This document shows positions 7,595 through 10,500 of a stretch of DNA of 38,603 nt, piece by piece (positions within the stretch are counted from its first letter, which is position 1; each line of letters starts with the position of its first letter). Both the position numbers and the translations under genes were made by a program. Origin of the DNA: an uncultured bacterium (GTDB taxonomy: Bacteria > Patescibacteriota > Minisyncoccia > Moranbacterales > UBA1568); contig CALMHZ010000022.1 in the NCBI GenBank assembly GCA_937864125.1, positions 1 to 38,603 on the forward strand, given 5' to 3'. The notes below the pieces were generated by a model, which saw nothing but the letters and a program-made list of their open reading frames with translations, ran no database searches and was not told where the DNA came from.

Positions 7595-10500
7595 AAGGTA
7601 ATAGATAATATTAGTACTTCTCGACTCAACCCCTCTCAGGGCTTCCATCTGAAGCCTATCAACCTCGTCATCTCCGAGGATATCTCGTTCCGATAAATCG
7701 GAACAGCTGCCTTATCTTGAGCCTGGCTTCCCGCTTAGATGCTTTCAGCGGTTATCCTACCCGAACATAGCTACTCTGCAGTGCTCCTGGCGGAACAGCA
7801 GATACACCAGAGGTTCGTTCTTTCCGGTCCTCTCGTACTAGGAAAGAGATCTCTCAAGCAGCGGCGCCCACAGCAGATAGGAAACCAACCTGTCTCACGA
7901 CGGTTTGAACCCAGCTCACGTACCACTTTAATTGGCGAACAGCCAAACCCTTGGGACCTTCTCCAGCCCCAGGATGTGATGAGCCGACATCGAGGTGCCA
8001 AACCTTGCCGTCGATATGGACTCTTGGGCAAGATCAGCCTGTTATCCCCAGGGTAACTTTTATCTGATGATCTTCCACACTCCTACGAGTAATGGTCGGT
8101 TCACTAACTTCTCCTTTCGGAACTGATCGACTGATCGGTCTTTCAGTAAAGCCAGCTTGTGCGTTTGCGCTATCGACCCGATTTCCATCCGGATCTAGCT
8201 GACCTTTGTAAACGCCTCCGTTGCATTTTAGGAGGCGACCGCCCCAGTCAAACTACCCACCAGGCACTGTCCCCCCGCCGGATATACGGCGGCAGGTGAG
8301 AGGTAAAATCTTTGCAGAGTGGTATTTCACTTGTCGACTCCACCACGCCCGAAGGCATGGCTTCATAGTCTCCCACCTATTCTCGGCAGCAAAAATCTTA
8401 CATCAATACCAAGCTATAGTAAAGCTCCATGGGGTCTTTTCGTCTTGCTGCAGGGCGACGGCATCTTTACCGTCATTGCAATTTCACCGGGATCTTCGTT
8501 GAGACAGTTCCCAAATCGTTACGCCTTTCATGCGGGTCTGAACTTACCAGACAAGGAATTTCGCTGATCGCTCCTTTCGGCGATGTACCATATCTTCTTC
8601 CATCGAAAATCGATGGAGCACGGCGTATGGTATCTGAGGGTTTTCCATCGAAATGGAATCTTCCCTGCTGATCACTCCACGATTAACAGAGCTTCCCAGC
8701 ATATAGCCATGTATTTTTTTAGGACCAATTCCGCATTACTACGGAATGAAGCAGCTTTTTGTTTATTGTTTACCGAAACTTTCGCCATAATCGTCCCAGT
8801 CCTTCCGGAACCTCCACTCAAGGAAGTCCCAGAACCTTAGGACGATTATAGTTATCGCCGACGTTCACTGGCGCTTCGGGGATTGGCGTGAACCGCTCCC
8901 GTTAACGTTCCAGCACTGGTCAGGCGTCACCCCCTATACATCCCCTTACGGGTTAGCAGAGAGCTGTGTTTTTGGTAAACAGTCGCTTGGGAAACTTTCG
9001 CTGCGCCCGGCCTTGCGACCGGGAAGGCATCTCGCAAACTTACGCCTAGCTTTTTTGCCGAGTTCCTTAACGAAGACTCTCCCGTTCGCCTTAGGCTACT
9101 CGCCCAGTCCACCTGTGTCGGTTTGCGGTACGGTTGGTCGTGTACGAACCTGAGAAGCTTTTCTTGGCACCTCGCTCCCCTTCCTTTTCCCGTGTTGCCA
9201 CGAAAATCGGGAAATTTCTCGGAGTATTGCCTGCCGGATTTGCCTAACAGACCTCCTCAAAACCCCCACACCAATCCAATAAGGTGCGAAGGGTACAGAA
9301 ATGCGTCACTCCATCGAATACACGAGCAGTTCCGGAATATTAACCGGATGGCCATCGACTACGCCTTTCGGCCTCGCCTTAGGACCGACTAACCCTGGGA
9401 TGATCACCATGGCCCAGGAAACCTTTGACTTTCGGCGTGAGAGGATCTCACTCTCATTGCGGTTACTCATTCCAACATTCGCACTTCCGTACGCTCCACG
9501 ATGGGTCACCCCTGTCGCTTCAGCGCATACGGAACGCTCTCCTACCATCGTATCTTGCGATACGATCCGCAGCTTCGGTACCATGTTTAAGCCCCGTTAC
9601 ATTGTCGGCGCGAAGTCTCTAAACTAGTGAGCTATTACGCACTCTTTCAAGGATGGCTGCTTCTAAGCCAACCTCCTAGGTGTCTCGGAAACTTCACTTC
9701 CTTTCCCACTGAACATGGATTTTGGGACCTTAGCTTGCGGTCTGGGCTGTTTCCCTTTTGAGCTCCGAGCTTAGCCCCGGAGTTCTGACTGCCCCGATAA
9801 CATACCTGGGTATTCGGAGTTTGGTTGAAAAACCTACGGTTGCCCGCGATTTCTCATCCAGTAGCTCTACCCCCCAGGCAGAGTGTCGGGACGCTAGCCC
9901 TCAAGCTATTTCGGAGAGAACCAGCTATTGCCGAACTCGATTGGAATTTCTCCCCTACACTCAAGTCATCCCCTCGTGTTGCACAGCGAGTGGGTTCGGG
10001 CCTCCACGCGATTTTACTCGCGCTTCACCCTGCTCAAGTGTAGCTCGTCCGGCTTCGGGTCTTGTCCACGCGACTTAACGCCCTTATCAGGCTCGCTTTC
10101 ACTGCGTCTCCGGAGTTTTCACCTCCTTAGACATGCCGCGTAGAACAAAGTCGTTGGATCGTGCTGCAAAAAGCACGCGGTCACCCCATGTATAAATACA
10201 GGAGCTCCCACTCTTTGTTAGCATGTGGTTTCAGGTCTATTTCACCTCCCTCTCGGGATACTTTTCACCTTTCCCTCACGGTACTAGTTCGCTATCGATC
10301 TCGAACAATATTTAGCCTTGGAAGTTAGTGCTCCCTGATTCAAACGGGGTTTCTCCGGCCCCGCCCTACTTGGGTACGATCGCATCCGGCATCACTTCTT
10401 TTCGCGTACAGGGCTATTACCTTCTATGGCACAGCTTTCCAGAAATTTCCGCTAAGAAATGATGCGGGACCCCGATAAAACGAGTACGATCGCCCCGCAA

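Follow-up and report, generated by a model that had tools for sequence, protein, structure and literature searches.

Group I introns at 23S rRNA position 1931 in which the guanosine-binding pair and the terminal nucleotide appear to have changed together

Guanosine dependence, a G:C pair in helix P7 and a terminal guanosine (omega-G) are textbook invariants of group I introns. How should one read a structured insertion that sits in a ribosomal RNA (rRNA) gene, has no terminal G and ends in C? The question is raised by a 268-nt insertion in the 23S rRNA gene of an uncultured bacterium (Patescibacteriota, Moranbacterales, UBA1568; assembly GCA_937864125.1), on contig CALMHZ010000022.1, whose 38,603 nucleotides make up the stretch analysed here and are called the window throughout. 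A first-pass annotation of this DNA had described the insertion and doubted that it was a group I intron. Here we identify it as a group I intron on the grounds of both fold and descent, present comparisons suggesting that it is one of a conserved natural subfamily whose nucleotide pocket and terminal base were changed together, apparently more than once, and weigh what this may mean for its splicing.

A 268-nt insertion with fixed borders

On the minus strand the gene runs ...AUCGUCCUAAGGU, continues with 268 nt (window 8833 down to 8566) and resumes with AGCGAAAUUCCUUGU. The insert has no open reading frame (ORF), splits CCUAAGGU from AGCGAAAUUCC, starts with UCUGGGAC and finishes with GAGCGAUC, its last base being C. 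By a numbering anchored on m5U1939 within AAAUUCC, it lies between Escherichia coli U1931 and A1932, in the linker between helices 69 and 71 (H69-H71), a universally conserved segment at the subunit interface. The Rfam large-subunit alignment also places a 268-nt insertion in this part of the 23S. The borders cannot slide, because the flanking exon bases differ from the end bases of the insert (first insert base U against 3' exon A, last insert base C against 5' exon U). The literature calls the site L1931 (PMC1995217) or, in passages of a survey of the Candidate Phyla Radiation (CPR), 1931 (PMC11270868). The gene and the insert are placed as follows.

7590..10797 (-): host 23S rRNA gene (RF02541, 2562 bits)
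8566..8833 (-): intron, 268 nt (RF00028, 40.9 bits); intron position i is window position 8834 - i

The window 23S contains no further insertion of comparable size (3208 - 268 = 2940 nt, for a model length of 2925). The minimum free energy (MFE) of the insert is -84.3 kcal/mol (z = -3.5), a stability reached by none of 200 shuffles. Among the matches listed from the two scans described below, 39 distinct sequences, contributed by many unrelated projects, have this architecture together with a terminal C, and the insert is therefore neither a chance arrangement nor an assembly error. The description in the first-pass annotation was accurate in these respects: an ORF-less 268-nt insert at L1931 with fixed borders and the ends given above, lacking both a terminal G and a group II signature, densely structured and too small to encode a homing endonuclease. 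We also judge correct its statement that the insert has to be removed for the ribosome to function.

The insert is a group I intron

The window was scanned at Rfam gathering thresholds, and positions 8500-8900 (401 nt) were scanned permissively, with E up to 10, covering the group I, group II and intervening-sequence (IVS) models that the first-pass annotation had proposed. In the 401-nt search the group I model RF00028 aligned over its whole length (model positions 1-253, window 8568-8757) with 40.9 bits and an E value of 3.3e-9. The core is complete, with the P3-P8 and P4-P6 domains, the P3/P7 pseudoknot and the joining strands J4/5, J6/7 and J8/7 all present (paired regions are denoted P, joining regions J and loops L). 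Its parts, with the exon segments they address, are these.

8834..8851 (-): end of the 5' exon, last 18 nt, equal to E. coli 1914-1931 (3' strand of H69 plus UAAGGU); guide-bound, forming an extended P1
8834 (-): U1931, base at the 5' splice site
8804..8833 (-): distal P1 hairpin, intron 1-12/19-30, starting at the first intron base; U1:A30 invariant, double changes at 10 of the 11 other pairs
8785..8801 (-): internal guide sequence, intron 33-49 (G-ACU-GGGACGAUUAUGG)
8728..8747 (-): P2 hairpin, intron 87-106 (AUUCCGUA-GUAA-UGCGGAAU), GNRA loop; double changes at 8 of 8 pairs, 96.5% paired
8706..8711 (-): P3 5' strand CAUGGC, intron 123-128; helix 100% paired (Rfam alignment)
8637..8700 (-): P4-P6 domain, intron 134-197 (Rfam alignment), with P4 GCUG/CAGC, J4/5 GGAA, the P5 hairpin, P6 AGGG/CCCU and P6a with a UUCG loop; P5 and P6a rich in double changes
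8635 (-): A199 in J6/7 (CA), equivalent of Tetrahymena A261
8628..8634 (-): P7 5' strand, G200-A201 (bulged)-U202-A203-C204-C205-A206 (Rfam alignment)
8632 (-): U202, at the canonical guanosine-binding G position (Tetrahymena G264)
8619..8624 (-): P3 3' strand GCCGUG, intron 210-215; with P7 the core pseudoknot
8599..8617 (-): P8 hairpin, intron 217-235 (covariation alignment)
8591..8598 (-): J8/7 AGAAGAUA, intron 236-243, catalytic-core hallmark strand; matches the Rfam consensus GAAGAUAU
8585..8590 (-): P7 3' strand, U244-G245-G246-U247-A248-C249
8586 (-): A248, in place of the canonical C (Tetrahymena C311)
8567..8584 (-): P9.0/P9, intron 250-267, AUCG/CGAU stacked directly on P7, then CC/GG; double changes at 5 of 6 pairs
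8571-8578 (-): loop L9 GAAAGGAG, containing GAAA
8566 (-): omega, the last intron nucleotide, C268; canonical base G
8553..8558 (-): 3' exon UUCCUU (E. coli 1939-1944), complementary to the L9 motif AAGGAR; possible 3'-exon-aligning pairing

The hairpins that had been picked out by eye fall into place in this fold: the UUCG stem is P6a, CCAUCGA/UCGAUGG is P8, the UACCA/UGGUA pairing that encloses it is P7, and L9 is the loop with GAAA. The topology of P9.0/P9 matches the P7 extension of the Tetrahymena intron (PMC10020454).

The covariation check proposed by the first-pass annotation was run on an alignment of 25 C-ending relatives (alignment A1; mean column identity 61%), with the secondary structure drawn from the window sequence. 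Across P1-P9, 91.7% of cells are standard pairs; sliding the 3' partners by one to three columns lowers this to 37-47%. Of the 88 pairs, 50 are changed on both sides; none of 500 shuffles reached the observed values. From G237 to A243, J8/7 is invariant in all 25 sequences. Sister introns of the same lineage share the design of P1, P2 and P9 and carry the canonical G:C pair and a terminal G. The earlier doubt about group I identity is thus answered by the complete core, the alignment to the whole of RF00028, covariation from P1 to P9 and the canonical sisters. The annotation had characterised an ordinary L1931 intron by a group I match, a consistent P1 and an omega-G; the match and P1 are present, omega-G is absent. 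That absence is a notable feature because it covaries with a change in the guanosine-binding pair of P7, which had gone unnoticed.

Other classes of insertion were rejected. A group II intron gives no match at E up to 10, and the insert lacks GUGYG...AY, ending instead in UCUGG and GAUC. IVS elements, excised by RNase III, usually occupy helices 25 and 45, and their ends pair as one long stem. Here the insert is at L1931 and its ends do not pair together, the 5' end forming a local hairpin and pairing with the exon and the 3' end lying in P9. Beyond these classes, the only other Rfam families matched in 8500-8900 at E up to 10 were mir-932 and PVT1_3, both at chance level.

A U:A pair replaces the guanosine-binding G:C pair

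The Rfam consensus strands of P7, AGACUA and UAGUC, are matched in the insert by AUACCA and UGGUA(C), so that U202 aligns with the consensus G and A248 with the consensus C; in sister introns the P7 5' region reads CAG-A-G-AC(U/C)A. By sequence register, which we take to give the equivalent positions, the pocket of the Tetrahymena intron maps onto the insert as follows.

Tetrahymena C262-G312: G200:C249
Tetrahymena bulged A263: A201
Tetrahymena G264:C311: U202:A248
Tetrahymena A265:U310: A203:U247
Tetrahymena A261: A199
Tetrahymena A306: A243

The Tetrahymena pocket is built of four layers of stacked base triples, A263/C262-G312, omega-G/G264-C311, A261/A265-U310 and A306/C266-G309 (PMC10020454). 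Three of them are unchanged in the insert (A201 with G200-C249, A199 with A203-U247, and A243 with C204-G246). The fourth, G264:C311, binds both free guanosine and the terminal G; among the P7 pairs it alone tolerates no change of identity, and activity is lost when it is swapped (PMC2860135). In the window and in all 25 aligned C-ending introns this pair is absent and U202:A248 stands in its place; likewise omega-G is absent, the last base being C268. The variant P7 is found in 38 of the 39 distinct C-ending introns (among the matches listed). Since P9.0 (A250-G253/C264-U267) follows C249 directly, C268 would be presented to the pocket like Tetrahymena G414. None of the 25 sequences departs from the common bases at C198-A206, G237-C249 and C268, at a mean column identity of only 61%, which argues for purifying selection on the active site.

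The pocket pair and the terminal base covary across relatives

Relatives were collected in two scans. The pattern used on a genome collection combined J8/7 with the 3' exon and left the P7 base and the last base free (at least 120 loci); that used on metagenomes consisted of the two variant P7 strands only, with no exon in it (43 loci). Together they returned at least 137 distinct introns at L1931; three-digit handles such as L147 denote individual loci. Among the matches listed, the genome scan yielded 110 distinct L1931 introns including that of the window. Where the P7 3' strand has A (16 introns), the last base is C in all 16; where it has C (94 introns), the last base is G in 77, A in 16 and C in 1, an association between P7 base and terminal base with a Fisher p of 2.4e-18 when kinship is ignored. 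Every one of the 43 metagenome loci lies at L1931; 42 end in C, one (L147) in U, and none in a purine. The two scans together hold 39 distinct U:A introns among the matches listed, of which 38 end in C, one ends in U and none ends in G or A.

Short introns of the Patescibacteria lineage, 43 in number, were aligned with MAFFT; 25 of them end in C, 10 in G and 8 in A. Only three columns of this alignment separate the C-ending class: 202, 248 and 268. Column 202 is U in 25/25 C-ending introns and G in 18/18 others, and column 248 is A in 25/25 and C in 18/18, respectively. Neighbour-joining on 181 core columns, with the three class columns and P1 masked, recovered the C-ending introns as a single clade in none of 200 bootstraps and put a trio of them (L051, L127 and L137) among the non-C introns in 196 of 200. 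Given this split placement, the three positions would have changed as a block at least twice, or have been exchanged as a block.

The named hosts of the C-ending class, drawn from many unrelated studies, are Moraniibacteriota (6), Saccharibacteria, Kaiserbacteria and other Parcubacteria and Patescibacteria. Three C-ending introns lie on 2-4 kb contigs binned outside the CPR (L010, L113, assigned to Bdellovibrionales, and L073, assigned to Caldithrix). These are probably mis-binned rRNA contigs of Patescibacteria, because the L010 23S is 84% identical to the CPR-like 23S of the window. The L1931 family as a whole is widespread, with members in Actinomycetota, Eremiobacterota, Armatimonadota and Patescibacteria (genome scan, among the matches listed).

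Exceptional and sister introns

Two introns depart from the coupling. L147 (match 3774-3824, minus strand), the only intron with a U:A pocket that does not end in C, is 833 nt long; its terminal U comes after a P9.0 stem of GGA/UUC, its P9 (CAUGGCGACAUG) is like that of Actinobacteria, and it contains a 190-aa LAGLIDADG-like ORF (VGFVDGEGCF). L110 (positions 4590-4881), from a Magasanikbacteria metagenome-assembled genome (MAG), is the only one among the matches listed that combines a canonical G:C pocket with a terminal C; its P9.0, AGACU/GGUCU, is normal, and L110 may be a defective copy or an intermediate in evolution.

The 16 distinct introns that end in A with a canonical G:C pair (L012, L029, L035, L044, L067, L070, L071, L072, L076, L082, L084, L085, L096, L104, L105 and L117) have the 3' end ...ACGAAA followed by the exon AGCG, and a search for a compensating column found none for this class. 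Seven G-ending introns of 178-262 nt (L002, L021, L025, L033, L075, L118 and L120; hosts in Paceibacterota, Adlerbacteria, Nomurabacteria, Kaiserbacteria and Saccharibacteria) lack the whole P4-P6 domain: only ACGAA stands between the P3 5' strand and P7, as in CGCGAC-ACGAA-GAGGCCA-UAC-GUCGCG of L002. We know of no natural group I introns without P4-P6. At the other extreme are C-ending introns 426-637 nt long with large additional inserts (L077, L102, L121, L123, L129-L133, L145, L148 and L149), located in the P6 region in the two that were inspected, L077 and L102. No convincing sense-strand ORF was found in these long C-ending introns, the LAGLIDADG-like ORF being confined to L147; L077 has a short reading frame rich in lysine and arginine.

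Exon recognition

Intron positions 37-49 form a guide sequence whose partner, exon 1914-1926, is the 3' strand of H69. In the 25 relatives, 98% of the guide/exon helix is paired and both sides are changed in 7 of the 16 pairs, with compensatory guide changes where the host exons differ (for example in L051, L057, L094 and L108). The first-pass annotation had found no guide sequence and no G-U pair with the exon U; intron 37-49, with its seven compensated pairs, supplies the guide, and GGU1931 can pair with intron 33/34-36 in either of two registers. In one, A34-C35-U36 faces U1931-G1930-G1929 and gives a Watson-Crick U1931:A34 pair. In the other, G33 forms the sought wobble with U1931 beside an A34-G1930 mismatch. 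Position 33 is mostly G (A in three introns), position 35 is C or U, A34 is invariant and exon GGU never varies; both registers fit. In the distal P1 hairpin, U1:A30 is replaced by C1:G in L020, L102 and L110.

At the 3' side, a canonical P10 was rejected, as A31 and G32, 5' of the guide, do not pair with the 3' exon AGCG. An RGGAR motif in L9 is kept across the lineage, and pairing of (A)AGGAR with the 3' exon UUCCUU may align that exon. The 3' exon is invariant apart from L144, and L9 of L144 shows no compensating change. P1, L9 and the related exon features are common to the G-ending sisters, and are therefore traits of the lineage and not of the C-ending class. A pairing of intron 81-86 with 259-264 in the MFE structure was discarded, not being conserved by eye in alignment A1.

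Two repeated motifs were also seen. CUGGGAC occurs twice, at window 8826-8832 and 8793-8799 (intron 2-8 and 35-41), that is, at the intron's 5' end and in the guide. Pairing of the 5' copy with exon GUCCUA could put the splice site into the loop of a hairpin, a different fold that might be inhibitory; the repeat is present in L002 too and absent from most relatives. AGCUGCYUC, at intron 79-86 (window 8748-8755) just 5' of P2, is near-invariant in the G-, A- and C-ending classes, single-stranded and without an obvious partner. It repeats GCUG of the P4 5' strand and could compete for CAGC.

A proposed mechanism and its alternatives

What the comparisons establish is the fold, the pairing with the exon, and a three-way covariation that is conserved. 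We think it probable that they reflect a natural re-specification of the nucleotide pocket, from a G:C pair with omega-G to a U:A pair with a terminal pyrimidine, the two being co-adapted. In such an intron, small, ORF-less and of L1931 descent, the guide would hold the last 18 nt of the 5' exon in an extended P1, and the P9.0/P9 stem on P7 would present the last nucleotide to the pocket. There the U:A layer would recognise C268 (U in one relative), most simply by the Hoogsteen edge of A248, O4 of U202 or both. C might plausibly donate N4-H to A N7 while accepting A N6-H at N3, or donate N4-H to U O4, and the U-ending member would be compatible with the classical U-A-U Hoogsteen geometry. The second transesterification would join U1931 to A1932 exactly, giving the ligated exons CCUAAGGU-AGCGAAAUU.

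As one pocket serves both steps of group I splicing, the first step would then be started by a free pyrimidine nucleoside or nucleotide, such as cytidine, and not by guanosine. Our stronger version of the proposal, a pyrimidine-specific pocket at which splicing is started by free cytidine (CTP, CMP or cytidine, perhaps uridine) and completed by C on U:A, is offered tentatively, as a possibility that falls short of an even chance.

Several points weigh against a re-specified pocket. That C docks on U:A, that the intron splices itself, what nucleophile starts the first step and exactly where the junction falls are all matters we infer. The C-with-U:A triple appears not to be isosteric with G on G:C in any obvious way, because the purine moves to the other strand. 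The counts for the coupling are not phylogenetically independent, and the inference of at least two switches depends on neighbour-joining of 181 columns, where recombination between introns could produce the same picture. G:C introns that end in A (16) or in C (L110) occur in the same lineage. The RF00028 score lies below the curated gathering cut-off of 50, and the insert gives no match in the gathering-threshold scan of the window; that cut-off is an annotation threshold, not a biological feature.

The main rival is relaxed omega identity: an ordinary guanosine-initiated intron in which the identity of the last nucleotide is irrelevant, the 3' splice site is set by P9.0 and intron-exon pairings, and U:A is tolerated or hitch-hiking. 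Omega recognition may indeed be lax in this lineage, because 16 relatives ending in A and L110 ending in C all keep the G:C pair unchanged, so that P9.0 and exon pairing might be what mainly sets the 3' site; P9.0 has 4-6 bp contiguous with P7, and L9 is complementary to the 3' exon. A 23S intron of Coxiella without omega-G is, reportedly, self-splicing. We nevertheless regard this explanation as unlikely. U:A is never found with a terminal G or A (none of 39 distinct introns among the matches listed) and is always accompanied by a pyrimidine, and columns 202, 248 and 268 are the sole class-specific columns, switched together at least twice. The G:C pair is, moreover, required in the first step too, so its loss should be lethal to a guanosine-dependent intron (PMC2860135).

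A second alternative, that the intron no longer splices itself and is either removed by host protein or RNase, leaving a fragmented 23S or re-ligated exons, or retained in the mature rRNA, seems to us more doubtful still. Fragmented rRNAs and retained insertions do occur in bacteria, the L1931 intron of Simkania is said to be unspliced, and both canonical features, omega-G and the G:C pair, are absent here. Yet J8/7, J6/7, P7 and J4/5 are invariant, and compensatory changes are found in every helix across 25-39 diverged sequences; a ribozyme that does not work could hardly account for such selection on core and helices. The insertion falls within the universally conserved H69-H71 linker, at the subunit interface. 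Passages of the CPR survey state that insertions of this kind are removed from transcripts (PMC11270868).

Finally, the idea that the upstream G265 (in GCGAUC) is the true omega, leaving three extra nucleotides in the mature rRNA, has in its favour a G located 2-4 nt before the exon in all members, and is very improbable: the position of that G varies (-3 in most, -1 in L132 and L154, which read ACGC), the bases after it (AU, AA or CU) are the covarying 3' strand of P9.0 (A250:U267 to U:A), the product would add bases to an invariant rRNA sequence, and the U:A change would be left unexplained.

Genomic setting

The neighbourhood of the gene is that of an ordinary chromosome, with phosphoglucose isomerase, a solute-binding protein, FtsW/RodA, and SecY with a ribosomal-protein cluster. 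Downstream of the 23S lies the following gene.

7423-7537: 5S rRNA gene (RF00001, 88.6 bits)

In window 10798-13868 and 14000-20266, the gene upstream of the 23S encodes an 866-aa tetratricopeptide-repeat (TPR) protein, and after it comes a 2088-aa ORF with a TTG start. No 16S gene adjoins the 23S-5S pair, and the rRNA operon looks unlinked, because the gene upstream of the 23S is that of the TPR protein and not a 16S. The nearest relative of the window 23S is that of a Moraniibacteriota MAG (L098), at 90% identity.

Implications and comparison with known systems

If the stronger version of the proposal is true, group I ribozymes would have in this intron their first natural switch of cofactor; to our knowledge, the only specificity switches are laboratory-made and date from around 1989-1991. 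Closely related G-, A- and C-ending introns would offer a ready system for asking how an RNA active site re-specifies its ligand, and C-ending ribozymes could provide an orthogonal cofactor for circular-RNA or trans-splicing tools. Annotation rules that expect a terminal G, together with the Rfam cut-off, miss C-ending introns, with effects on CPR rRNA annotation and on primer and probe design. Full-text literature searches returned no natural group I intron with a terminal C or a changed binding pair, in a corpus that covers subscription papers thinly, and a prior description is possible; matches to 'omega C' concerned mycobacteriophage Omega.

Group I introns at L1931 are known from Thermotoga, Synechococcus, Simkania and organelles (PMC1995217), and passages of the CPR survey place them in CPR bacteria at a site called 23IS7, including the I-ShaI intron (PMC11270868). 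The same passages describe the classification of inserts with Rfam and the study of endonucleases, and mention neither the terminal nucleotide nor P7 (PMC11270868). The described L1931 introns are about 650-750 nt long, carry a LAGLIDADG gene and lack P2 (PMC1995217). The window intron resembles them in its site after U1931, in its ribozyme core including J8/7 GAAGAUAU and in the context of P7; unlike them it is 268 nt long and ORF-less, has a P2 and extends P1 by 13 bp onto the 3' strand of H69. From the canonical L1931 members found in our scans, which pair G:C with a terminal G, it differs in its U:A pair and terminal C.

Two further natural introns bear comparison. At L1931 of Simkania, Everett and co-workers reportedly described an 'unspliced' group I intron in 1999. 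Raghavan and co-workers are said to have described in 2007 a self-splicing 23S intron without omega-G, Cbu.L1917 of Coxiella burnetii, reportedly with a terminal A. Cbu.L1917 and the window intron are both natural group I introns of bacterial 23S genes that lack a terminal G; the Coxiella intron differs in its reported terminal A and is not known to have a compensating change in P7. It fits our A-ending class, which looks like its widespread natural counterpart.

The closest functional analogues are the engineered G264A:C311U ribozymes of Tetrahymena. Michel and co-workers reportedly obtained, in 1989, specificity for 2-aminopurine or adenosine with this pair, and Been and Perrotta, as cited in PMC2588497, are said to have found in 1991 that a changed pocket pair needed a matching cofactor and omega change. 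The likeness to the window intron would lie in a P7 pair change that alters the accepted nucleoside and requires omega to match, one pocket serving both steps. The engineered mutants are laboratory-made, exchange one purine specificity for another and keep the purine on the 5' strand; the class represented by the window intron is, by contrast, natural and conserved, with the purine on the 3' strand (U:A) and a pyrimidine as omega.

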